32,000 nt of DNA, from contig SHMX01000003.1 in assembly GCA_008080745.1 (NCBI GenBank), positions 330,001 to 362,000 of the forward strand, given 5' to 3'. The notes beneath the pieces are model-generated. The model did no database searches. It worked only from the letters and a program-made list of their open reading frames with translations, and was not told where the DNA came from. Position 1 is the first letter of the stretch; the number at the start of each line of letters is the position of its first letter. Positions 2,341 to 14,766 of the stretch are shown piece by piece. A program made the translations under genes and the position numbers. The stretch is from Candidatus Thorarchaeota archaeon (GTDB lineage Archaea; Asgardarchaeota; Thorarchaeia; Thorarchaeales; Thorarchaeaceae).

Positions 2341-3768
2341 CTAATCCTTTTTTTCGCTAAGATATTTGTGAATGCCTTCAGCTGCCGTCTTTCCAGCACC
2401 CATTGCACTAATGACGGTTGCTGCACCAGTGACAATATCACCGCCAGCAAAGATACCAGGAATCGAACTCATACCAGTTTCTTCGTCAATTACAATAGTA
2501 CCCCATTTGGATAGTTCCAGACCAGGAATACTCTCAGTTACAATCGGGTTAGGTGAATTACCAATAGCCACAATGACTGTATCAACATCCATTACAAATT
2601 CCGAGCCCTCGATTGGAACCGGACGTCTGCGGCCTGAAGCATCCTTTTCACCCAGCTCCATTCGAATACATTTCATACCGATGACATTACCTTTCTCATC
2701 ACCTATGACCTCAGTTGGGTTAATCAGTAGTTTGAACTGAACCCCTTCCTCTTCTGCGTGATGAACTTCTTCAAGACGGGCTGGCATCTGTTCACGGGAA
2801 CGACGATATACGATATAGACCTCTTCAGCACCTAATCTCAGTGAAGTTCTTGCAGCATCCATTGCTACATTTCCTCCACCAATCACCGCTACCTTTTGAC
2901 CAATCTTCACGGGTGTATCGTATTCTGGAAAGAGGTAACCCTTCATTAGATTGACTCGCGTAAGAAACTCGTTAGCAGAAAACACATCAACTAAAGTCAT
3001 CCCAGGTATTCGCATGAAGTTTGGTGCTCCTGCCCCTGTACCCAAAAAGACTGCATCGAATCCATCTTCTTCCATGAGTTCTTTTACCTGACGAATCTTT
3101 CCTACAACATAGTTGTAGCGAATCTTCACACCTAGTTTTTCAAGGAATTCAACCTCTGCCTCAACGATATCCTTTGGTAGACGGAACTCGGGAATTCCGT
3201 ACATAAGTACACCACCAGGTTTATGGAATGCCTCGAAGATGGTAACATCGTAACCAAGCTTAATGAGGTCGCCAGCGCAAGTCAGACCAGCAGGACCAGA
3301 TCCAACAACTGCGACTTGCTTGCCAATCTTCTCTGGTAATTCAGGGAGTGGTTCACCCTTTTCTCGGGCAAAGTCAGCAACAAAACGCTCAAGGCGTCCA
3401 ATAGCAATAGCCTCGTTTCGAATTCCATAGATGCATTTAGCTTCACATTGGGTCTCCTGTGGACAGACACGACCACAGATTGCAGGAAGAGTGTTGGTTT
3501 CTTTGATCTTCTCTGCAGCTTCCATAAATTTACCTTCACGTACGAGTGCAATAAATTCCTTAATTGGAACATCAACAGGACAACCCGCTACACACTTGGG
3601 ATTCCTGCACTGCATACATTTTTCCGCTTCTCGTATAGCAGCTTCTGCTGCGTAACCCAATGCAACTTCTTCGAAATTCCCTCTTCGAACACTTGGATCT
3701 TGTTCAGGCATAGGCTCTTTCTTTGTTGGAGGCTTACGTTTCCTCTTCGGTTTCTTTTCATCGGCCAA
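2341..3768 (-). CDS. nfnB: NADH-dependent reduced ferredoxin:NADP+ oxidoreductase large subunit (NfnB / SudA, GltD-like)
   Basis: CMQC..KCVAGCP and CGRVCPQETQCEAKC Fe-S motifs; VVGSGPAGL FAD site; VIGGGNVAMD NADP site; FAGGDIVTG. Probable TTG start at 3768, one base after the nfnA stop, with GGGAGG upstream (the ORF track starts at 3834). Confidence 0.92.
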   Translation of the reverse strand: MADEKKPKRKRKPPTKKEPMPEQDPSVRRGNFEEVALGYAAEAAIREAEKCMQCRNPKCVAGCPVDVPIKEFIALVREGKFMEAAEKIKETNTLPAICGRVCPQETQCEAKCIYGIRNEAIAIGRLERFVADFAREKGEPLPELPEKIGKQVAVVGSGPAGLTCAGDLIKLGYDVTIFEAFHKPGGVLMYGIPEFRLPKDIVEAEVEFLEKLGVKIRYNYVVGKIRQVKELMEEDGFDAVFLGTGAGAPNFMRIPGMTLVDVFSANEFLTRVNLMKGYLFPEYDTPVKIGQKVAVIGGGNVAMDAARTSLRLGAEEVYIVYRRSREQMPARLEEVHHAEEEGVQFKLLINPTEVIGDEKGNVIGMKCIRMELGEKDASGRRRPVPIEGSEFVMDVDTVIVAIGNSPNPIVTESIPGLELSKWGTIVIDEETGMSSIPGIFAGGDIVTGAATVISAMGAGKTAAEGIHKYLSEKKD

Positions 3769-3769
3769 T

Positions 3770-4606
3770 TTAGCTACCTCCCGATTCACTGGCGTATAGC
3801 TCTTCAGATTTTTCTTCTTGTTTAGTATACGCATTTAGTCTGCCCATGAGCTCATCAAAATCAACCTCATGGCCGTCAAACTCGGGTCCATCAACACAAG
3901 CGAATTTCATCTGTCCACCGACAGTAACTCGACAAGCTCCACACATACCCGTTCCATCAACCATAATGCTGTTGAGGCTAACAATGGTCGGAATCTTCTT
4001 GTCCTCGGTAGTCTTTGCAACAAATTTCATCATTGGAACAGGTCCAACAGCAAAGACAAGATCTATCTTACGACCTTGTTGAATAAGGTCGCCAAGGACA
4101 GTGGTCACAAAACCATGTACACCACATGAACCATCATCTGTTGTTTCATAGGCTTCGTCACTAATTTTCTTCATTTCTTCTCTATAGAGAAGGAGACTCA
4201 TGCTTCGAGCACCGTTGATAGTGATCAAATGATTGCCTGCCTCTTTGAAAGCGCGAGCAACGGGATATGCAATGGCACTGCCGCATCCACCACCTATCAC
4301 AACCACAGTGCCGATATCATCGGTGTGTGTTGCCTTTCCAAGAGGACCAACGAAATCCAATATCTCATCGCCAACCTCAAGGCGTCCCAGTAACTGTGTT
4401 GATTTTCCTACCTCTTGGAAAACAATGGTTACGGTGCCTTTTTCACGATCAAAATCAGCTATAGTAAGAGGAAATCTCTCACCCGTTTCATTCACCCTAA
4501 TCATAACAAACTGGCCTGCCTTACAGACCTTTGCTATATCAGGTGCTTGAACTACAAGCATTTTTGTGACCGGATTGAGGACTTGCTTAAACTTAATCTC
4601 ATACAT
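3770..4606 (-). CDS. nfnA: NfnA / SudB small subunit (FNR/PyrK-like flavoprotein with [2Fe-2S])
   Basis: GQFVMIR, ERFPLTIAD, GPLG, MVDGTGMCGACRV...ACVDGPEF (Asp plus 3 Cys cluster ligands); directly upstream of the NfnB homologue. Confidence 0.92.
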   Translation of the reverse strand: MYEIKFKQVLNPVTKMLVVQAPDIAKVCKAGQFVMIRVNETGERFPLTIADFDREKGTVTIVFQEVGKSTQLLGRLEVGDEILDFVGPLGKATHTDDIGTVVVIGGGCGSAIAYPVARAFKEAGNHLITINGARSMSLLLYREEMKKISDEAYETTDDGSCGVHGFVTTVLGDLIQQGRKIDLVFAVGPVPMMKFVAKTTEDKKIPTIVSLNSIMVDGTGMCGACRVTVGGQMKFACVDGPEFDGHEVDFDELMGRLNAYTKQEEKSEELYASESGGS

Positions 4607-4710: not shown

Positions 4711-6426
4711 TCAACCTGTAAACACGCCACGAACTTCACGAACTACCATTCCCGGAAGGTCCTCTGCAGATTTCACTGGAATCAAAATTGCTCCAGCTTT
4801 GATTATGGATTTGAAATCTTTACTGGAGAGTTGTTTCGCGTCTGTACCGATACAGAACATAATGAACTTGTGACCTACTCTAGTCATCTGTTTTGCTGAA
4901 GTGACAAGATTCTTCCAATTTGCAATCTCTGCATCAGTTATCATGACAACCATGACATTGGATTCGGCCTCTGAGCAAGCTTGTACAATCTCTTTGATGG
5001 GAGCAACAGTACCTCCACCTTGATAAGACAAGAGCGTCCTTTCAACAGTGTTTCGTTCTCGACTCCATCCGGACATACGTGTACCATCAGAGAAATTGAT
5101 TGATGCTACTCGAGACCCTTTTTGCAGAGCAAAGTCAACAGCTGCAAAGGCCGCAATCAGGGCAGTGTGATATGAACCAGATATGCTTCTTTTTCTCATT
5201 GACCAAGTCATTGAGCCACTTGAGTCGATCACAACTAAAAGGTCAGGAAGTGAATGTGAGATGGCTTCTCCAGACTGAGATATTGTCTGCCATCTTCGAG
5301 TTGATAGGTTTGGAATTAGAACAGGAAATGCCTGCAGAGATTGAACAACATCTAGCTCCTCTATGGGGTCGCCTAACCTCCAGACCTGTGGTGCCAGTGG
5401 TGTTGATGCTGCAGAAGACTTCTCACGAATTTCGAAACGAATAAGTGTACGAGCTTTTGCACGGTACCAGAATCGGGTCCAGGCCCGTCCTCGAGTACCA
5501 ATTCCAGCTATAAAGTAAGCGCCTTTGAGATCGTCCATACCACCCCCTCTCCTTTCTACTTCAGATGCAAGTCGTTCCATCTCTTCTTCAACGTCTGTTG
5601 CCGAGTCGCGGTCATTGCATTTTCGAGCTCTGTCGCCATTACGGGCTTCAACAGGACTGCCCATTATGGAGTCTACATCAATAGGCACAAGAATGACAGT
5701 ACCATCTTCGTTGTCAAGACCGTCATCACCTCCAGGAATGGCACAACCAGCCAGTTTTGTTTCGTCTGGATTCCATTCTTTGATGATTTTTGCTATCTTT
5801 TCCGTTGCTTTTTTCCAACGGTTTTCACGGTGGATGTACCTATTTGTTATCTTCACAATTTTTTGTGCTGCTTGAGCTGTTTCTTCGTCTATTGATACAG
5901 AAGATGGGAGAAGAAATCCCCACATCTCTTTGTAACAGGCTATGATGAGCTTCCATAATGCACTATGTTCACTCACGCGATTAGCAGAATCTTGTATCGA
6001 TTGGTGAATTCTGGAACGTGTCAATTCTGGAAACCGTTTTAGAAGTCCACTATCGACGACCAGATCTGCGAAAAGGTTACAAACGAACATTGCAGTCACG
6101 TCGTTCACATGTTTCCTAGCTCCTGCAAACATCATACCGTTCAATACACCATCAAAGGGGCAGACTAGATAATGCTGCATCTCATGATGGCAGATTGATA
6201 GAGCATAAGAAAACAAGTCCTCACCTGAGAGATGTAGAGGATATCCTGCTGTGTTGAGATGAACGGTCCAAGTTGTTGCATCAATATAGAAGTAGCTGTT
6301 AACATCCTCTTGATATTCAATGGTAGGGTCTGGAAGCGGAGGATTATAGTAATCGGACATAGCTTTCAGCCATGCTTTCATAGAAACCTCTCTCAGATCA
6401 CTAATCCGGTCAGTCGTGAATTCCAC
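4711..6426 (-). CDS. Zincin-like (HExxH) N-terminal domain fused to a C-terminal vWA domain; MoxR partner
   Basis: CHHEMQHY (HExxH); complete MIDAS motif VVIDSSGSM...YQGGGT...MITDAEI. The ORF-track start (6513) overlaps the MoxR gene; GTG at 6426, 10 nt after the MoxR stop, is more plausible. Confidence 0.82.
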   Translation of the reverse strand: MEFTTDRISDLREVSMKAWLKAMSDYYNPPLPDPTIEYQEDVNSYFYIDATTWTVHLNTAGYPLHLSGEDLFSYALSICHHEMQHYLVCPFDGVLNGMMFAGARKHVNDVTAMFVCNLFADLVVDSGLLKRFPELTRSRIHQSIQDSANRVSEHSALWKLIIACYKEMWGFLLPSSVSIDEETAQAAQKIVKITNRYIHRENRWKKATEKIAKIIKEWNPDETKLAGCAIPGGDDGLDNEDGTVILVPIDVDSIMGSPVEARNGDRARKCNDRDSATDVEEEMERLASEVERRGGGMDDLKGAYFIAGIGTRGRAWTRFWYRAKARTLIRFEIREKSSAASTPLAPQVWRLGDPIEELDVVQSLQAFPVLIPNLSTRRWQTISQSGEAISHSLPDLLVVIDSSGSMTWSMRKRSISGSYHTALIAAFAAVDFALQKGSRVASINFSDGTRMSGWSRERNTVERTLLSYQGGGTVAPIKEIVQACSEAESNVMVVMITDAEIANWKNLVTSAKQMTRVGHKFIMFCIGTDAKQLSSKDFKSIIKAGAILIPVKSAEDLPGMVVREVRGVFTG

Positions 6427-6436
6427 GGAAACTAAC

Positions 6437-8152
6437 TTACTCAGCCCCCTTACCAATCTGTTTCTCAATCTCTTTCTTGAGTTCCACTGCATCGCTCCCG
6501 CCCGATATTTCAAGAAAGACCTTGGATTCAGGCGAGTCCCCAGTTACATATATGATAAGGGTCAACCTGTCAGTCCGAATGACTTTTCGTTTCGGTGGTT
6601 CAAGGGTTTCCTTGAGTATGCCGGTCATTCGTGGATGTCTGATGCTAATTACAGTCCAGAGGTCTTGCCAAACATCAAAAGTTGTTGAAAACTGAGAAAG
6701 AGTCAATCTATGCATGGCCTCTGACACTCTATTGAGAAGCATACTACGATTGGGAAAATCAGTCTTATCGATTAGTTCCGCATGAAGCTTTGTGAGCGAA
6801 TCAACATCTTTCTTGTCAATACTCTTCTCAATACTCTTGACCATTGATACATACTTCTTCTTCTTGAGCTCTTTCGCAATAGCAAGATAATCCAATCGAA
6901 CTAGAATGTCACTCTTTCCCATTTCCCTAAGTTCACTAACAACCGAGCTATCAGCTTTTCCATGACGTAGGTTGTGTATCAGCTGCATCGCTGCATCTCT
7001 TTGAGCAAATCGGGTGGCAGCCAATTCTACAAGATTCTCAGTGAAGGCATAACGATTACCATAGAATGGAGTCTTCTCCATCTCGTCCCGGGTATATTTT
7101 GTTCTGTGCCAGAAGACTAGCGGAGCTATTGACTTTACTATCTCGATACTTACCTCTTCAGCACCAATCAACCAAGCAACAGCTTTACAATACCTATTCA
7201 AGTCCTTAGCAGCACGAACACTCAGTGGAATCAGGACCTTGTTGCAAACGCTCTTTGGCGTATTGAAATGGCAGCCATCACACAGACCAGTATCAACAGT
7301 CAAGTCACTCGATTGACTCTTATCCACTCTAACACATGCACCAAACTCACGCACCACGGACCTCATGAATTCTGATGCCTCCTCTGACACAGGCATCTTG
7401 TCTGCGAGATTCCATATCGTTAGAAGATCTTCTTCTGAGAGAATTGCTGGTACTTGCCACAACTCATCATAACCAAATAGTTTCTCGTCGCGCGAAGCCA
7501 GAATCAATTCTAAGTCATTGACAGTGGGCATGGTTATAGGAACAGCCAATCCAAATCTATCCAAAAAGGGTGGAGCCATATCAAATGTTCCTGCATCAGT
7601 AGGATTCATGGTGGCATACAGGCAGAAGTCCTCACATCGCTTAACCTCATCATAGTACTTCAGTTCACCCTCGGCTAGCATCGATAGGAGGATGTTCTGA
7701 GCATGTGGAGTCAGCCTATTAACCTCATCAATCATTTTCCAGAATCCAGTCACGAACCTTCGCCAAACAACTACTTCGACACCGTCTTTCATCAAGGGTC
7801 CCGGTTTCAACGTGGCAACCATCTTCTCTTCTGTCAGTTGGGGATGACCTCGTAAAACACCGTCCTCAATCTCGTTCAAGGTCTTTCCAGTCATCATTCT
7901 ACCTAGGAGTTTGATGAGTGTAGTCTTTCCACCACCATGCCCTCCAACCAGTAACATAGCAGATCGGGGAACAAGTGCATTTAGAACAGTAGAGCCAACT
8001 ATGAGTGGAAGTCTGTATGTCTTTGCTTTTGACCCGCGTGATGGCGTGTGTCTGATGGTAAGGTCTCCAGCATGAACAAAGAGACCTCTACTCTCCACTG
8101 TAGTGATAACACGCCAAATATCTTCTCTTAAACGGTCACTATCGATACTCAT
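6437..8152 (-). CDS. MoxR-family AAA+ ATPase with a Cys-rich insertion and a C-terminal helical extension
   Basis: Walker A GGHGGGKT, Walker B MIDEVNR, sensor-1 ATMNP, PFLDRF arginine finger; adjacent vWA gene. Confidence 0.88.
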   Translation of the reverse strand: MSIDSDRLREDIWRVITTVESRGLFVHAGDLTIRHTPSRGSKAKTYRLPLIVGSTVLNALVPRSAMLLVGGHGGGKTTLIKLLGRMMTGKTLNEIEDGVLRGHPQLTEEKMVATLKPGPLMKDGVEVVVWRRFVTGFWKMIDEVNRLTPHAQNILLSMLAEGELKYYDEVKRCEDFCLYATMNPTDAGTFDMAPPFLDRFGLAVPITMPTVNDLELILASRDEKLFGYDELWQVPAILSEEDLLTIWNLADKMPVSEEASEFMRSVVREFGACVRVDKSQSSDLTVDTGLCDGCHFNTPKSVCNKVLIPLSVRAAKDLNRYCKAVAWLIGAEEVSIEIVKSIAPLVFWHRTKYTRDEMEKTPFYGNRYAFTENLVELAATRFAQRDAAMQLIHNLRHGKADSSVVSELREMGKSDILVRLDYLAIAKELKKKKYVSMVKSIEKSIDKKDVDSLTKLHAELIDKTDFPNRSMLLNRVSEAMHRLTLSQFSTTFDVWQDLWTVISIRHPRMTGILKETLEPPKRKVIRTDRLTLIIYVTGDSPESKVFLEISGGSDAVELKKEIEKQIGKGAE

Positions 8153-8385
8153 TACGACTCACACTGAACATCTACTAGAATAAATCAATCCTTATGGTCT
8201 CATCGGTTACAGCGCGGATTTATGTAGGTATTAGAAATACATGTCTGATCTGATAATGGTGAAATTATTGAGGAAATATATTCTTTGATACGTTTTATAT
8301 TCCTTCATATCTACAGAACAAGTGGTATATCATACTTGATTTCTACAAAAAATCCAAATATTCAGCAACAATAGCTCTAACATTC

Positions 8386-8538
8386 ATGATTGCACTCCTT
8401 TTTGCATTCTTAGGACTTCTATTCAATACACAATCAGGGAGTATATCTGTTCTAAGTGATCTTGTAAAATTCTATGGATTTGCAATTATAATGGCATTGC
8501 TTGGAATTGGGATGATACTTTTTAAAAACAAAGAATGA
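8386..8538 (+). CDS. Putative 50-aa two-TM membrane protein, possibly the 3' part of a longer frameshifted gene
   Basis: My translation: MIALLFAFLGLLFNTQSGSISVLSDLVKFYGFAIIMALLGIGMILFKNKE. The frame is open from 8272 with no upstream ATG. Below the ORF-track length cutoff. Confidence 0.4.
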   Translation: MIALLFAFLGLLFNTQSGSISVLSDLVKFYGFAIIMALLGIGMILFKNKE

Positions 8539-8738: not shown

Positions 8739-9809
8739 GTGGGTGAAGACGATTCATTTATTGAAATGGTCAGGTTGATAGCGCCTGAAAATCTATCCTT
8801 AGATAGAATAAGTCAGAGAAGTCTCATCAACTATGCAGAACAGTATGCCAGGACATTCAGAAGAGCCATTGAGATGAAGGATCAACTTGAAGAATTGGAT
8901 CTTCAGTTTGGCGGAAGAGTACTGCTGATTGGACCACCAGGTACAGATTTTGAGACCTTCATCACCTATTTGGCAACCGAGATTCCACTCAAAGTAGTAC
9001 AACTACAAATTAAAGAAATTATATCTCAAGAAGAGAGGGTTCCAGAGTTTATCAGATTCATGCGGGAATATGCTGAAAGAAATGCTCCCTGCATACTCTA
9101 CATTGAACGAATCGAGGTTCTTGGAAGTAAGGACACATCAGACGCGGTAATTCTGGAGTCGGAAATAGGACAGCTTAATTGGGATAATGCCGAGGTCATT
9201 GTTGTTGCCTCCACTCATGAACCTCAAAATATGGACACATCAATAAGAACAGTCTTCGACAGAGCATTCATCACAACAATACCGAATTCAGACGACAGAA
9301 TGGCAGCATTAGAGAGTATTCTCAAAGATAGAAAGGATTTGGACCTCACGACCATTTCGGAATTCACTGAGGGGTGGAGCTTTGCAGATATCAAAAAGTT
9401 AGGCATTGCGCTTCTTATGACAGAACCCGCTACAGAAGGGCAAATCGATCCTGAAGAATTAGAAAAAATGATTGGGGATACACACGTACTACCAATTTCA
9501 AATCCAGACACCTTGAAGTATGCACTACGCAGAACCAAACTCAAATCAGAGTCTCGAATCCAGAAGGCTGTCGAGGCATATCCAGATGACTTTCTCGAAC
9601 AATTGTATCTTATGGCTGTAGGTGATAATTATCAAGATACTCAACGCATCATTGAATCACTAAATACAGGACTACCTCTATCTCCAAAAGATCAAGAATT
9701 CTTGGGACGATATCCCTTTCTCCTATCTGGCACACCCGAGGAAAGACTAACACAACTTCTGAAAGCAAAGAAGAGCCATGATCGATTAAGCAGAATAATG
9801 GGAAGATAA
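8739..9809 (+). CDS. Classic-clade (CDC48/Vps4-like) AAA domain protein with degenerate catalytic motifs, probably a pseudo-ATPase
   Basis: VLLIGPPGTDFE (Walker A lacks Lys), APCILYIERIE (Walker B DE replaced by ER), VIVVASTHEP, lid motif TEGWSFADIK. Confidence 0.75.
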   Translation: MGEDDSFIEMVRLIAPENLSLDRISQRSLINYAEQYARTFRRAIEMKDQLEELDLQFGGRVLLIGPPGTDFETFITYLATEIPLKVVQLQIKEIISQEERVPEFIRFMREYAERNAPCILYIERIEVLGSKDTSDAVILESEIGQLNWDNAEVIVVASTHEPQNMDTSIRTVFDRAFITTIPNSDDRMAALESILKDRKDLDLTTISEFTEGWSFADIKKLGIALLMTEPATEGQIDPEELEKMIGDTHVLPISNPDTLKYALRRTKLKSESRIQKAVEAYPDDFLEQLYLMAVGDNYQDTQRIIESLNTGLPLSPKDQEFLGRYPFLLSGTPEERLTQLLKAKKSHDRLSRIMGR

Positions 9810-9816
9810 CTAGGAA

Positions 9817-12800
9817 TTGTTAAAGATGGTTCGAAATACTGTTAGGCTGGTTTCAGTCAAACTCACTAATTTCCTATCCTTTTACAAAGGATTTGTTGAG
9901 TTCGATCCAGGTCTGACGGTCATTTTGGGACCAAATGGTTCTGGAAAGACATCGATTTTTCACGCAGTTAAGTTTGCTCTTGGTTCGAATCAAAGAGAGA
10001 ATAGGTATCGCAAATGGAGTGACTTCATCAGACACGGTGCTTCTACTGCAGAGGTTGAACTCACAGTTGAAACAGGTAATGGGACTAAGACATTTCGTAG
10101 AAGAATAGATCGAGATGGAATTCCCCGAGCCTACATAGATGGAAAAAGGGTGAAAGCATCAGAACACAGACGTCAGGTTGATGCCCTCGGTTTTGATATA
10201 GATAATACCCTTGTATTTATGCCTCAAGAAAGAATCAATGCTCTTCGAGATATGGATCCTATTGAGGTCAGAAAACTTGTTGAAGAGGGTACGGGTCTTG
10301 CAGTGCTTCGAGATAGGATAGCATTGCAGGAAGTGGAGGTACGACAGAGTAGGCAACGACTTGATAGTGCAACTCTGGAGTCACAAATGGTAGAGAAAGA
10401 ACTTGAATTCCTAAAGACAGATTTAGCTAGATTGGCTAAAAAACGCGCACTTCAGCAAGACGAGCAAAAACTGAGAACCGAGCTCAAGTGGGCATCCCTT
10501 GATGATATTGTAGGAAAAATTGACCAAACAAGGTTAGATATCGAAAAGATGGAGTCGGGACTCAGTTCTGTTCTCGAAGAGATAAGCTCACTCAAGACAC
10601 AGCTTGAATCAGAGGAAGAAGAAGCTAGTATCATAGAGAACCAGCTTAATAATATTCAGCAAGAGATAGGTAAAATCGAAGCCAAGATCGATCAAGAGGA
10701 ACGAAGACTGGATAAGATTAAGGATGATTCAAAACAACTAACTCAAGAGATACGTCAGCTTGATACAGATGTCAGAGCTGAGAAACGAAAGAAGAAGAAG
10801 CTCCAAACAGAATTACGTCGAGCGTCTAAGACCGCAGAAGAACTCCTTGACAAACAAGTAACCCTTCGACAAGAGCTGGAAGGAATAGAGGATGAACGGA
10901 TAAAAGTTGAAGATGAACTTGCAGCTTTTTCCGAATGGAACGCGGAACGTGCAGAAGTTCATGGTACCTATAAAGCACTGCAAGCAGAGGTCCAGGGCAA
11001 AGATGTTCTGATTAGAAGCCTACGAGAACGATTACAAATTGAAGAAGCGGAATTACAAGCAATAGAGAGTAAATGGGGTGAATCCTGGGGCATTATTGAA
11101 AAGGCTGATGAGAAAGAATTAGTGAAAAAGAAAGGGGAGATAGAACGTAAATTAGCCTCAGTAAATGAGGAACGCTTTGGCATATCAAGTAGAGTAGCCC
11201 AACTTCAGAAGGAGATTAAAGACATTCAAGTACAACTATCGGAGACCTCCCTCCGAGTACCAGAAACTGTTAGAGGATTGAAGACAACATTAGAAGAACA
11301 TAACCTGACCTCTCTTATGGGTCCGGTTGTAGAAATGGTTGTTGCTCGTGATGAAATCGCAGAGGCACTTGAAGCAGTTTTATCGAATGACCTAGCATTT
11401 GCCTTTATCACACAAGACGAGGCAGAGTATACCCTCATCGAGAAGATCAGAGATGAAAAATCAGCAGCCTCACCAATCATTCTTGTAGAAACCGAGGAAC
11501 TAGAAGAAATCCAACCACCTGATAACAAAGGTGTAATAGGATGGCTCTGGCAATTACTAGAACTAGACCCACATCAAGTTTCCATTATCCGAAAAGCACT
11601 TGGTGACTATCTTGTTGTAGAGAATAATAGTGTCGCAAGAAGGGTTATGCGAAATTTCAGTGCCCGTATTGTTACACTTGAGGGAAAGATAATCGAACCA
11701 AGTGATAAAAGAACAATAAGCTATCCGCCAAAGGAATCAACGGGGATTGTTTCAACAGCACCACTCCAGAAGAGACTCGTTCAGGCTGAAAAAGAACTCA
11801 CTGTTTCCCGAAAGAAACTAACGGATGTGATGTCCCAGATTGAAAAACTATCTCAAGAACGAGAAGAGGTTATGGATATTCTAAGTCAGGTAACACGATG
11901 GGCTGGAACATGGGAGAAACGCAAACAACTAACAGAGAGTATAGCGGAAGTAGAAGAAAGAATAGTTGGTCTCGATGATGAATTAAAGGAACTGCAGGCA
12001 GAGCTTGGTAAACGAGAGCGGGAACTTCGCAGACTGGATCAAAGTCAACCCCCAGAACGAAGTCGGTTAATTGGTAAACGATCAGCCATCAGGTCAAAAT
12101 TACGTGAATTACAGAGGGAATTGTCAAAGACCGATGATATGCTTCGAACTACTGAGAAGAATGAAAATAACAGCCGTAGTGAGCTTAGAAGAACAGATGA
12201 ACTAATTGAAATGCTCTCAAGCCGACTTGTTGAATTGAGGGATGAGGCTTCAGAATCTAAGGATGTGAGCACACAGATTCTAACAGCCTTGGAGGAACTT
12301 CGAGAGAGCAAAAAAACAACCTCTACAAAAAGAACTGAACTGAAGAAGCAATATGATTCAATTCATGCGAGTGTTAAACTCATCAGAGAACAGCTGGTTG
12401 AACGAAATCTCAATGTGCGAGACAGTAAACTTCGGGTGACTCAGACCAAGAGAAAATTAGATATTCTGGAAAATGAACATAGTCGATTACTGAAAGGATT
12501 GGAGGACGAAAAACGTCCAAAAACAATCCGGCCACTTGAAACAGTTCGGGAAAGACTTCTTCGTGTTCAGCACCTCCTTGAGGATTATCAAGACGTGACA
12601 GAATCTGTAGCTGTGACCGAGGTCAAATTAAAGGAACGACTCTCTAAATTAGCAGCAAAAGTCAAGGAGCTACAGTTAGAGCTAGACGAGGCAGAAAATG
12701 CAGTAAAAAGTATCAGACAGCAATATCACAAAGGAATGGATGAGACCCTAGACAAGGTAGAGAAAGCTCTCAATGCGGTCCTTCAGACTGTGAGATATAC

Positions 12801-13191
12801 TGTACAGGTAAGATTTGAACTTGTACGACGTGACGGGGAATATGGTGTAGAATTCAGACCCGTTATCAAGGGTGACGAGTACGATAGTATAAGCGCAGGT
12901 TCGGGTGGAGAGAGGTCTCTAATTGCAATAGGATTAATCATGGCACTTCAGACATTCAACCCTGCCCCGGTGTATGCTCTGGATGAAGTAGATACATTCC
13001 TAGATGCCACCAATACAGAAATGATCAGTATCATTCTGCATGATGCCTCTCGACGAAGCCAGTTCATTATATTCACACCAGCAAAGAGTACCCATCTACT
13101 GAAACATGCGGACAAGAGAATCGGTGTAGTATCTCCGAGTGGGACTGAACCGTCGGTCGTGATTGAGAGCCCCAGATATTCAGGTCAATAG
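9817..13191 (+). CDS. smc: SMC ATPase with hinge, SMC5/6-like, 1124 aa
   Basis: Walker A GPNGSGKT; Q-loop IDNTLVFMPQERI; long coiled coils; hinge (GPVVEMV...ALEAVL...GVIGWL...VTLEG); signature SGGERS; Walker B/D-loop LDEVDTFLD; switch QFIIFTP. Start is TTG 9817 or ATG 9826. Confidence 0.93.
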   Translation: MLKMVRNTVRLVSVKLTNFLSFYKGFVEFDPGLTVILGPNGSGKTSIFHAVKFALGSNQRENRYRKWSDFIRHGASTAEVELTVETGNGTKTFRRRIDRDGIPRAYIDGKRVKASEHRRQVDALGFDIDNTLVFMPQERINALRDMDPIEVRKLVEEGTGLAVLRDRIALQEVEVRQSRQRLDSATLESQMVEKELEFLKTDLARLAKKRALQQDEQKLRTELKWASLDDIVGKIDQTRLDIEKMESGLSSVLEEISSLKTQLESEEEEASIIENQLNNIQQEIGKIEAKIDQEERRLDKIKDDSKQLTQEIRQLDTDVRAEKRKKKKLQTELRRASKTAEELLDKQVTLRQELEGIEDERIKVEDELAAFSEWNAERAEVHGTYKALQAEVQGKDVLIRSLRERLQIEEAELQAIESKWGESWGIIEKADEKELVKKKGEIERKLASVNEERFGISSRVAQLQKEIKDIQVQLSETSLRVPETVRGLKTTLEEHNLTSLMGPVVEMVVARDEIAEALEAVLSNDLAFAFITQDEAEYTLIEKIRDEKSAASPIILVETEELEEIQPPDNKGVIGWLWQLLELDPHQVSIIRKALGDYLVVENNSVARRVMRNFSARIVTLEGKIIEPSDKRTISYPPKESTGIVSTAPLQKRLVQAEKELTVSRKKLTDVMSQIEKLSQEREEVMDILSQVTRWAGTWEKRKQLTESIAEVEERIVGLDDELKELQAELGKRERELRRLDQSQPPERSRLIGKRSAIRSKLRELQRELSKTDDMLRTTEKNENNSRSELRRTDELIEMLSSRLVELRDEASESKDVSTQILTALEELRESKKTTSTKRTELKKQYDSIHASVKLIREQLVERNLNVRDSKLRVTQTKRKLDILENEHSRLLKGLEDEKRPKTIRPLETVRERLLRVQHLLEDYQDVTESVAVTEVKLKERLSKLAAKVKELQLELDEAENAVKSIRQQYHKGMDETLDKVEKALNAVLQTVRYTVQVRFELVRRDGEYGVEFRPVIKGDEYDSISAGSGGERSLIAIGLIMALQTFNPAPVYALDEVDTFLDATNTEMISIILHDASRRSQFIIFTPAKSTHLLKHADKRIGVVSPSGTEPSVVIESPRYSGQ

Positions 13192-13202
13192 GAGACAGGT
13201 AA

Positions 13203-13838
13203 ATGTCACAGGACCACAAGAAACTCGCTAAACAGGTAATGGAGTTAGCAGAATCCGTACGTTCTAGAAAGATTGACCCACTTGACGTTAAGCTCCAAGA
13301 AACCTACAGAGAATTACAAGAAATCATTGCAGATGTCGATGGACGAATCACGGTTGACGAGCTTCTAAATGAGGTTCTATCAAGCAAAGTCACTAGAATA
13401 CAAGACTTGGCTAAAGTTCTAGGAGCTCCAGAACTCTACATCACTCGACTCAGCGAACTGAAACCAATGGAGATTGCAAAACTCATTGTATACAAAAATC
13501 CGGTCGTAGTCACAACACTCCCCTTTGATGCAATGGAGCGAGCTGATGACAGAATCCAACAGATGATAGATAAGACTTCTCGTGAGCCAGAACCCGATGA
13601 TATTCCTGAGATGACTGGCGTTCCTGAGGATTATTTGTTTACATCACAAGATTCAGTATTCCTTGCTGACCTCAAGAAATACTTGAAATCCATTCCAAAG
13701 AAGGCTATCTCGATAGATGAATTGTTAGAAACCGAGGACTTTGATGAGTTTCTCAAGAGATTTCTCTATATTGTCATCCTTGTATCACGGGGAGACTTGG
13801 TTTTTGACAAAGAAACACAGACCGTCTGGAGGAGCTGA
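13203..13838 (+). CDS. Kleisin subunit (ScpA/Nse4-like)
   Basis: N-terminal KIDPLDVKL (cf. ScpA IDPWDIDI); Pro/acidic linker; C-terminal winged helix FLYIVILVSRGDLVF; starts 11 bp after smc. Confidence 0.75.
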   Translation: MSQDHKKLAKQVMELAESVRSRKIDPLDVKLQETYRELQEIIADVDGRITVDELLNEVLSSKVTRIQDLAKVLGAPELYITRLSELKPMEIAKLIVYKNPVVVTTLPFDAMERADDRIQQMIDKTSREPEPDDIPEMTGVPEDYLFTSQDSVFLADLKKYLKSIPKKAISIDELLETEDFDEFLKRFLYIVILVSRGDLVFDKETQTVWRS

Positions 13839-13846
13839 GGTAGGCT

Positions 13847-14353
13847 ATGAACGAATATGCAATCCTCATGAAATTACTCACCCGAGCCGGGAATCCCATA
13901 GGAGCAGGAGTAGAGGATATGCTAGATGCATTAGCCCTTCCCGAGATAGTAGGACGAGGGCCACTCTTTCAGAAGATGGGTGCATTGAATGAGCTGCTGA
14001 GACCCATGGGAATAACTATCAAACATAATCCAATCGATCACGTCTTTTACATCGATACTCTTGCAAAGGAAGATATTGGGGAGGAAACCGTTCTACCCGA
14101 TAGACTCGCCTCCACTTTACTCATTGTCATCACACTAGCATACCAAAATAATGGATGGGTATCTATTGATCAAGTCAAAAAACTGAGACGTAAGAGCTTA
14201 CAGGGAGTAAAAAAGGACCTTCGAGAATTAGCATCGATGAATTATGTGCAGCTGGATAGCAGAAGCAAGCGAGTTAGACCTGGTACTCGTGTTGCCTTCG
14301 AAATCGACTACGAACGCTTCTTCAGAAAATTATCAAAACCAGATACTACTTAG
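13847..14353 (+). CDS. Tandem winged-helix KITE subunit (ScpB/Nse1/Nse3-like)
   Basis: 168 aa with two wH-like halves (LNELLRPMGITIK...FYI; VSIDQVKK...KKDLRELASMNYV...RVRPGTR); starts 8 bp after the kleisin gene. Confidence 0.7.
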   Translation: MNEYAILMKLLTRAGNPIGAGVEDMLDALALPEIVGRGPLFQKMGALNELLRPMGITIKHNPIDHVFYIDTLAKEDIGEETVLPDRLASTLLIVITLAYQNNGWVSIDQVKKLRRKSLQGVKKDLRELASMNYVQLDSRSKRVRPGTRVAFEIDYERFFRKLSKPDTT

Positions 14354-14409
14354 TAGCGCTTTCGTTAGTTTTATCAAGCAACACGAAAAGCCCAACATGG
14401 TCGTTAATT

Positions 14410-14766
14410 ATGTCAAGACGTTCTCTTAGATTTTCAAGAGCAACCTGTCCAATCTGTGGAAGTAAGGAAGTCGCTCGCGACGACCTGAAAGGCGACCTTT
14501 TGTGTACCAATTGTGGAAATGTCGTCACACGCCGTGAAACAAAATCAGTTGGAAAATTCCAGATTGCTCAACAACTCAAACGTGAAGGGCGATTGAGCTT
14601 TTCAAAACTCCGCGATATCACTGGAGCCTCTGATGACAAACTCTTTGGCATCCTTGAGAGTATGGTCCGAATGGGGCTTATACAAGAAATCGGTGGGTCT
14701 TACTCATTGACCAAACGCGGTAGCAAATGGTATCGCCAAAGACTTGGACAGCAATGGGGTTACTAG
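14410..14766 (+). CDS. TFIIB-type zinc ribbon fused to a winged-HTH domain
   Basis: CPICGSKEVARDDLKGDLLCTNCG ribbon; wHTH LSFSKLRDITG...LFGILESMVRMGLIQEIGGSYSLTKRG. Confidence 0.8.
   Translation: MSRRSLRFSRATCPICGSKEVARDDLKGDLLCTNCGNVVTRRETKSVGKFQIAQQLKREGRLSFSKLRDITGASDDKLFGILESMVRMGLIQEIGGSYSLTKRGSKWYRQRLGQQWGY

Follow-up and report, generated by a model that had tools for sequence, protein, structure and literature searches.

Does the Asgard archaeon represented by assembly GCA_008080745.1 (Candidatus Thorarchaeota archaeon) carry a second SMC (structural maintenance of chromosomes) complex and, if so, which of the neighbouring genes belong to it? The question is raised by a gene cluster in a stretch of 32,000 nucleotides (nt) from contig SHMX01000003.1 (positions 330,001 to 362,000), which we call the window and to whose first letter the window positions below refer. 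The cluster contains an SMC gene followed by genes for a putative kleisin and a kite subunit, and the original prediction, made from the letters of the window, took it for a five-gene SMC5/6-like module with two unexplained accessory genes. We consider it probable that the window encodes a second SMC complex of the archaeal SMC5/6-related type known from the literature, with an AAA-like accessory protein and, more speculatively, with a MoxR-type ATPase and its von Willebrand factor A (vWA) partner in the same unit. The genes concerned are the following, with product lengths in amino acids (aa).

8739-9809, plus strand: AAA-like gene, 356 aa
9817-13191, plus strand: SMC gene, open reading frame (ORF) of 1124 aa in which Walker A, Q-loop, SGGERS, Walker B and hinge were all found
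13203-13838, plus strand: kleisin candidate, 211 aa, between the SMC and kite genes
13847-14353, plus strand: kite subunit gene, 168 aa, tandem winged helix
14410-14766, plus strand: zinc-ribbon/winged-helix gene (ZNR), 118 aa, with zinc ribbon, winged helix and C-terminal tail
6437-8152, minus strand: MoxR-type AAA+ ATPase gene, 571 aa, divergent from the SMC module
4711-6513, minus strand: HExxH-vWA gene, the MoxR partner, 600 aa, with N-terminal HExxH and C-terminal vWA domain carrying a metal ion-dependent adhesion site (MIDAS)

The five plus-strand ORFs are separated by gaps of 7, 11, 8 and 56 nt, exactly as originally described. In the database record the SMC starts at ATG 9826 (1121 aa), which is the likely start codon and leaves 16 nt between the AAA-like and SMC genes. 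The five-gene arrangement is far from a chance one, since it recurs in 38 other Asgard loci. Its predicted boundaries were drawn too narrowly; they miss the upstream MoxR and vWA genes (4711-8152), which travel with the module. The source genome has a size of 3.16 Mb and is 98% complete, and the nearest homologues of the window SMC are >100 proteins labelled Thorarchaeota or Promethearchaeota with 43-56% identity.

The window SMC matches the Pfam domains SMC_N (E 1e-38) and SMC_hinge (E 4e-10), and the invariant SMC motifs were confirmed in the protein. The Q-loop string reads IDNTLVFMPQER (Q137), the signature SGGERS occupies residues 1029-1034, and the switch reads FTPAKS with a proline (P1088) that is invariant across the family; these strings, like the RPGTRVAFE cited for the kite, were all found in the proteins as predicted. 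Against the archaeal SMC model TIGR02169 the window protein scores 302-307 bits, under the cut-off of 729, and the other SMC of the same genome, encoded on a separate contig, scores 907 bits and exceeds it. This canonical smc gene is followed by genes for ScpA (PF02616) and then ScpB (PF04079, E 7e-33). A BLASTP alignment of the two SMCs spans merely 100 residues, and the pair of proteins encoded downstream of the window SMC, together with their homologues, match neither PF02616 nor PF04079. Because the canonical smc-scpA-scpB operon sits on another contig, the window cluster is, judged by gene content, an additional set of SMC, kleisin and kite genes, separate from those for the canonical Smc-ScpAB of this genome.

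A maximum-likelihood tree of SMC head domains was built from 23 SMCs of the window type, 17 canonical Asgard SMCs and three SMCs from families f17 and f20, with no eukaryotic sequences. The window SMC lies inside an Asgard-wide clade with Thor, Loki-type, Jord, Baldr and Odin-labelled members (support 97/93), and the canonical Asgard SMCs form a separate group (support 100/99). The window SMC is thus placed outside the canonical group, in keeping with the original prediction. Within the clade, the tree of window-type SMCs follows the lineages. The hinge lacks the paired glycines that are invariant in canonical Asgard SMC (G671 G672), which agrees with the earlier remark on a hinge without the glycine motif.

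The relation to the eukaryotic complexes was examined by a reciprocal, similarity-based profile test, in which a profile of the window clade and a profile of the canonical Asgard SMCs were each compared with all Protein Data Bank (PDB) sequences. Chains of SMC1-4 score about two times lower with the clade profile than with the canonical profile (SMC2, 274 vs 535 bits; SMC3, 270 vs 540 bits; SMC4, 245 vs 559 bits; SMC1, 204 vs 468 bits), whereas solved Smc5 and Smc6 chains score about 1.5 times higher with the clade profile (yeast Smc6, 177 vs 123 bits; yeast Smc5, human SMC5 and human SMC6, 178-183 vs <111 bits). These scores support a position of the window SMC clade relatively nearer to Smc5/Smc6 than that of canonical SMC and, because Smc5/6 and SMC1-4 prefer opposite profiles, agree with the published grouping of such proteins.

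The AAA-like gene extends this set. Its product matches PF00004 (E 6e-10, 40 bits vs a cut-off of 21), and its AlphaFold2 (AF2) model, with a predicted local distance difference test (pLDDT) score of 88.8, shows a classical-clade AAA fold followed by a C-terminal helical domain (approximately residues 256-356). The top Foldseek matches of the model are PAN, FtsH, p97, Vps4 and Msp1, with E of about 1e-12 for the first four. Synteny was sampled at 40 Asgard SMC loci, two of which proved to hold canonical SMC, leaving 38 of the window type. In 38/38 of these, from families f1, f2, f7, f8, f9 and f24, the AAA-like gene lies immediately 5' of the SMC gene, and none was found beside canonical smc at the four canonical loci examined. 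When the profile of the family was run against 1.84 billion representatives, it recovered about 44 family-specific clusters, and the named ones are all Asgard (Thor, Loki/Promethearchaeia, Helarchaeales, Odin-labelled, Baldrarchaeia and Jordarchaeales). These findings make the AAA-like protein a strong candidate for a fourth subunit of the SMC complex, and its gene is a conserved, Asgard-wide companion that probably encodes an undescribed subunit.

The catalytic consensus is missing from the window AAA-like protein, in which Walker A reads GPPGTDFE, Walker B YIERIE and sensor 1 THE. The Walker A lysine is absent in 38/38 orthologues (GPPGTDF in Thor-like and xPGTDI in Loki-type proteins) and Walker B is degenerate too; most near-invariant residues are held by the C-terminal domain. 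Two relatives retain more of the ATPase motifs: in P0356, from an Odin-labelled metagenome-assembled genome, Walker A, Walker B and sensor 1 are preserved, and in P0291, from Helarchaeales, only Walker A. Both possess the C-terminal domain of the family and are encoded directly before an SMC, which at the P0356 locus (L050) is followed on its 3' side by kleisin- and kite-sized genes; the P0291 contig terminates inside the SMC. Because these relatives retain Walker motifs in the same position, the AAA-like partner probably began as an active ATPase and lost catalysis later. A search with the Walker-A-intact relative was dominated by generic AAA proteins at 50-78% query coverage, and ESM Atlas feature searches with the AAA-like C-terminal domain and with the Zn-ribbon protein yielded scores <0.9 and were uninformative. 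A 199-aa partial protein (P0401, in the cluster of P0283), which belongs to the Jordarchaeales AAA-like cluster at an identity of at least 90%, carries the label Nitrososphaerota; as its contig is only 3.6 kb long, the label probably reflects binning and not an occurrence in TACK archaea.

The second pair of neighbours lies upstream on the opposite strand. The MoxR protein matches AAA_5 (E 4e-13) and AAA_lid_2, with Walker A (GK[ST]) and Walker B (DE) intact. Its partner contains HHEMQH at residues 109-113 and the MIDAS motif DxSxS at residue 429, and matches VWA_2 weakly (E 0.0014); among the orthologues of this partner, HExxH is present in 25/31 and DxSxS in 31/31. At 20/20 Thor-like loci the MoxR gene is the divergent neighbour of the AAA-like gene, and in 19 of these it has the vWA gene alongside, the twentieth running off the retrieved sequence. 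At four Jord and Baldr loci the genes are co-directional in the order MoxR, vWA, AAA-like, SMC, kleisin and kite. Since the pair is linked to the SMC genes in Thor, Jord and Baldr genomes, and MoxR is gone together with the second SMC in genus g5 (see below), the SMC unit may extend upstream to MoxR-vWA and comprise six genes, a more speculative proposal. The co-occurrence of MoxR and window-type SMC across genomes is suggestive and imperfect, and a first SMC search missed divergent forms; it is not among our main arguments. The pair resembles RavA-ViaA, NorQ-NorD and CbbQ-CbbO in combining an AAA_5/AAA_lid_2 ATPase with a MIDAS-bearing vWA partner, but differs from them in the conserved HExxH of the partner and in its linkage to an SMC module. 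No description of an HExxH-vWA partner or of an SMC-linked MoxR pair was found in the literature searched. In the window, the MoxR and vWA-partner ORFs overlap by 77 nt (6437-6513) in different frames, and the 586-nt spacer between the MoxR and AAA-like genes has room for a possible small ORF at approximately 8323-8538, hydrophobic by eye and below the 60-aa listing limit.

No Pfam match was obtained for the kleisin and kite of the window, and a Pfam scan of 25 kites and 24 kleisins matched no ScpA, ScpB, Nse1, MAGE or Nse4 family. A gene of 180-240 aa lies between SMC and kite in 36 loci. In an hhalign comparison, this kleisin family aligns with the ScpA of the same genome with a probability of 67% (E 5e-5), colinearly across 113 columns that cover the middle and the C-terminal winged helix. 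The kleisin profile also gave a marginal PDB match to the C-terminal domain of P. furiosus ScpA (4i99_C, E 0.018), and the hidden Markov model profiles of kite and kleisin retrieved neither Nse nor ScpB from the PDB sequences.

For the kite, structure prediction was more informative than sequence. Its AF2 model (pLDDT 89.6) has top Foldseek matches that are all kites, namely ScpB, Nse1/Nse3, MAGE-G1, JetB (8dk1_E, 8as8_C) and MukE, which confirms a kite fold for the modelled protein. Structural comparison with VIA gave Z of 11.7 and 11.4 for ScpB and 10.3 for Nse1-Nse3-Nse4, which we count as a tie. The kite had been described as Nse1/3-like from its RPGTRVAFE string, a claim that these comparisons do not support: the two kinds of kite are tied in the fold searches, and the string (residues 144-152) is not conserved outside Thor-like kites. 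ScpB ranks at the top structurally but within the tie, and the kite sequence matches neither ScpB nor the Nse1/MAGE models. One kite homologue shows a weak DUF4194 match. In the 1.3 kb between kleisin and zinc-ribbon genes at one locus (L025, G167), no intact kite ORF was found; the only ORFs there encode 72 and 99 aa, as might result from a pseudogene or an assembly error.

Archaeal SMCs of this kind were defined as 'SMC5/6-related' by Yoshinaga & Inagaki 2021 (10.1101/2021.05.15.444277). According to van Hooff, Raas, Tromer & Eme (bioRxiv 2024, v2 2025; 10.1101/2024.01.07.573240), many archaea of the TACK and Asgard groups possess two operons, one condensin/cohesin-related with an ScpB-like kite, and the other with an SMC5/6-related SMC, an Nse4-related kleisin and an Nse1/3-related kite, and the products of the two were proposed to form separate homodimeric complexes. 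The SMC-kleisin-kite core of the window is therefore of an already published kind, as the original prediction had allowed. Like the published operons, the window pairs a second SMC with a kleisin and a kite of its own, apart from the canonical operon, and its single SMC and single kite genes imply homodimers, which fits both the original prediction and the proposal of van Hooff et al. The published operons are described as three genes, whereas the window adds AAA-like and MoxR-vWA neighbours; the main text and supplement of van Hooff et al. mention no AAA, MoxR, vWA or zinc-ribbon neighbour, and no description of the AAA-like and MoxR partners was found in the literature searched. In a Thorarchaeaceae genome these authors record SMC5/6-related SMCs together with a kite related to Nse1/3, and they detected no Nse4-related kleisin there, unlike the window, where a kleisin-like gene lies between SMC and kite.

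Comparison with the better known complexes shows where the window module stands apart. It shares with eukaryotic SMC5/6 the SMC-kleisin-kite architecture, the preference of Smc5/Smc6 for its clade profile over the canonical one, and an extra accessory factor that is not a kite and whose role may be comparable to that of the Nse5/6 loader or regulator. It differs in having one SMC and one 168-aa kite without RING in place of pairs, in lacking an Nse2-like gene or alpha-solenoid Nse5/6 in the window, and in an accessory protein of AAA fold, unrelated to Nse5/6. With canonical Smc-ScpA-ScpB it has in common the overall architecture and the kite fold, for which ScpB is the best structural match, but its SMC belongs to a separate clade, and neither its kleisin nor its kite is recognised by the Pfam models of ScpA and ScpB.

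What is known of these families suggests how the core would work. An SMC homodimer would have its heads bridged by the kleisin, with a kite dimer on the kleisin, and the resulting ring would entrap or extrude DNA under ATP control, beside the canonical Smc-ScpAB encoded elsewhere. Synteny and conservation suggest that the AAA-like protein is a dedicated accessory of this complex, which would have begun as an active classical AAA ATPase and become a nucleotide-dead scaffold in most Asgard lineages, with the C-terminal helical domain as a likely docking surface. More speculatively, MoxR and the HExxH-vWA protein, divergently transcribed in the window, may belong to the same functional unit, with the dead AAA protein coupling the ring to a MoxR-vWA remodeller that loads, releases or dismantles it. 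ZNR would be a small protein specific to Thorarchaeia, with a role in DNA binding or transcription, and its gene no more than a neighbour of the kite gene. A bolder version is a six-protein Asgard machine, in which the ring-bound dead AAA protein recruits MoxR and HExxH-vWA to load, extract or proteolytically open the ring. We regard this version as possible though doubtful; if true, it would represent a prokaryotic forerunner of ATP-driven SMC loading and unloading, or of the cleavage of kleisin, within the lineage from which eukaryotes arose. Among eukaryotic SMC complexes SMC5/6 is the least understood, and no better model of its ancestral form is available than its archaeal relatives. A conserved accessory, perhaps with a linked remodelling motor, would provide a defined minimal set of four to six small proteins for reconstitution, which would address loading, regulation and removal of a homodimeric SMC5/6-type ring.

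Several observations weigh against the preferred reading. The link of AAA-like, MoxR and vWA proteins to the SMC ring comes from gene order and co-loss, and the genomes concerned are related and hence not independent samples; a complex prediction with SMC head halves, kleisin and AAA-like protein scored 0.00, which speaks neither for nor against it. The MoxR link is not universal: the pair lies elsewhere in Loki-type families, genus g39 and family f24 have MoxR-vWA next to canonical smc, families f17 and f20 have it together with a third SMC type without an AAA-like gene upstream, and family f19 has a short SMC resembling the window clade and no MoxR match. The identity of the kleisin is drawn from its position and the hhalign probability, and the fold of the kite gives no preference for Nse1/3 over ScpB. 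The SMC itself had been predicted to be SMC5/6-like, and the reciprocal profiles do bring it nearer to Smc5/6; in absolute scores, the clade profile puts SMC2 and SMC3 (about 270 bits) over Smc5 and Smc6 (about 180 bits). The likeness of its TP switch to SMC5/6 is unsupported, because a search with the switch region retrieved only Pyrococcus Smc, and marginally. A single-sequence PDB search with the whole protein was also led by Pyrococcus Smc heads (88 bits) and did not discriminate between SMC types.

One possibility is that the AAA-like protein is merely a conserved neighbour that serves MoxR-vWA or unrelated clients, its position reflecting inherited order or shared transcription. Its role in the SMC complex is deduced from gene order and conservation; in Thor, Jord and Baldr genomes its gene sits between the MoxR pair and smc, so that linkage could be to either side, and vWA orthologues without HExxH occur exactly in those families whose SMC operon has no AAA-like gene. 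However, where the MoxR pair is distant or on other contigs, as in Loki-type genomes and f24, the AAA-like gene still stands immediately before the SMC gene, often with overlapping or near-touching ends, and the order is kept at only 20-27% SMC identity between classes. We therefore consider this explanation unlikely. The suggestion that flanking genes may be undescribed subunits or loaders has good support for the AAA-like gene as a candidate, whose conservation beside smc in 38/38 loci is Asgard-wide, and not for the Zn-ribbon gene, which is lineage-specific and outlives the loss of the SMC.

Another possibility, which appears quite improbable to us, is a nuclease-free system for defence or plasmid restriction, in which a Wadjet- or Smc5/6-like complex would sense extrachromosomal DNA, and the AAA-like protein and MoxR-vWA would act as effectors. 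The silencing of episomal DNA by eukaryotic SMC5/6 and the occurrence of MoxR-vWA modules in conflict systems count in its favour, as do the matches of the kite model to JetB, the DUF4194 match mentioned above, and the best NCBIfam and PADLOC names of the AAA-like protein, the anti-phage ATPase IteA/IetA (46 and 45 bits). The IteA score, however, compares with a cut-off of 510, the PADLOC match to JetC covers the P-loop only (31 bits), and PADLOC gave nothing for the kleisin, kite, MoxR and vWA proteins. No nuclease gene was present among the neighbours scanned, and the predicted absence of a JetD/Toprim gene holds for the same neighbours. Unlike a mobile defence island, the module occupies a fixed chromosomal place among housekeeping genes family-wide, and its tree follows lineages; the composition is ordinary. 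Wadjet (JetABCD) and MukBEF do share with it an SMC-kleisin-kite core with an extra dedicated operon partner, and the kite aligns to JetB and MukE; it differs from Wadjet in having no JetD/Toprim nuclease and no PADLOC match to JetA, JetB or JetD, and from both in being vertically inherited at a fixed chromosomal site.

That the SMC is an archaeal paralogue of Smc-ScpAB that evolves fast and is not specially related to SMC5/6 could be argued from the Pyrococcus Smc matches of the whole protein and the switch region, the ranking of SMC2 and SMC3 and the ScpB-like top match of the kite, but the opposite profile preferences of Smc5/Smc6 and SMC1-4 and the published phylogenies, in which SMCs and kites of this archaeal kind group with SMC5/6 and Nse1/3, make it very improbable.

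The complex of the SMC5/6-related type with its AAA-like accessory is thus the reading that we retain, and the last plus-strand gene of the cluster can be separated from it. ZNR has a TFB/TFIIB-type zinc ribbon (PF08271, 33.2 bits vs a cut-off of 29) followed by weak winged-helix matches and an invariant C-terminal tail, RWYRQRLGQxWGY. Despite its ribbon it is not a TFB/TFIIB, being a protein of 118 aa that ends in a winged helix; the true TFB genes of these genomes (about 320 aa) match it in the ribbon only. Within Thor-like genomes it is the best conserved of the five genes (mean identity 56%, 21 orthologues), and full-length copies occur only in families f1 (43/43) and f2 (1/1), TFB ribbons alone matching elsewhere. 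ZNR probably has its own promoter, which fits the TATA-like TTTTATCA found some 33 nt before its start codon.

Genus g5, with three genomes that are 88-96% complete, bears on this gene. ZNR is intact in them, and genome-wide searches, in which positive controls matched, found no orthologue of the second SMC, kite or MoxR; these searches did not extend to the genes for vWA, AAA-like protein and kleisin. At the g5 loci L053 (7593-10366) and L054 (9659-12402), ZNR stands directly beside orthologues of the window genes at 2341-3834 and 3770-4606, a landmark pair that is inverted relative to the window, and the six genes that run from vWA to kite in the window are all missing between ZNR and these landmarks. 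Because g5 keeps ZNR without the second SMC and kite, ZNR is, on this genomic distribution, not an obligate subunit, and a role as SMC subunit or loader is unlikely. The loss in g5 also indicates that a genome which retains canonical Smc-ScpAB can do without the module, and it marks which neighbours belong to the latter.

Other arrangements of these genes were seen outside the window-type loci. In Loki-type genus g39 (L065, 9965-17660; also G040:C25 and G089:C3), MoxR-vWA is convergent to a canonical smc, whose product at L065 has 1195 aa and is 30% identical to the canonical SMC of the window genome; an ScpB-like gene follows it. In families f17 and f20 (L084, 5835-10402; L085, 6680-12492; L086, 4420-10197), a third, long-branch SMC of 1056-1088 aa precedes genes whose products have about 229, about 193 (with a weak kite match) and about 457 aa, without an upstream AAA-like gene; the MoxR partners of these families are without HExxH. 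A complete genome of family f19 encodes a short SMC at G038:C1:1916069-1918516, in open frames of 851 and 889 aa. It matches the clade profile in three pieces (156, 134 and 105 bits), whose sum exceeds the score of the canonical SMC of the same genome (283 bits); either a short-armed variant or a frameshift in the gene could account for this.

The order of the cluster can also be interrupted. In genus g9 (L009, L010, L024, L026, L027 and L028), unrelated genes are inserted within it: kleisin and kite are separated by a major facilitator superfamily (MFS) transporter gene on the opposite strand and a gene for a kelch-repeat protein, and a TauE exporter gene stands between those for MoxR and the AAA-like protein. 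Kite and ZNR remain together in these genomes, and ZNR stays beside the kite gene even where the MFS transporter or kelch protein gene splits kite from kleisin, or the pair is inverted.

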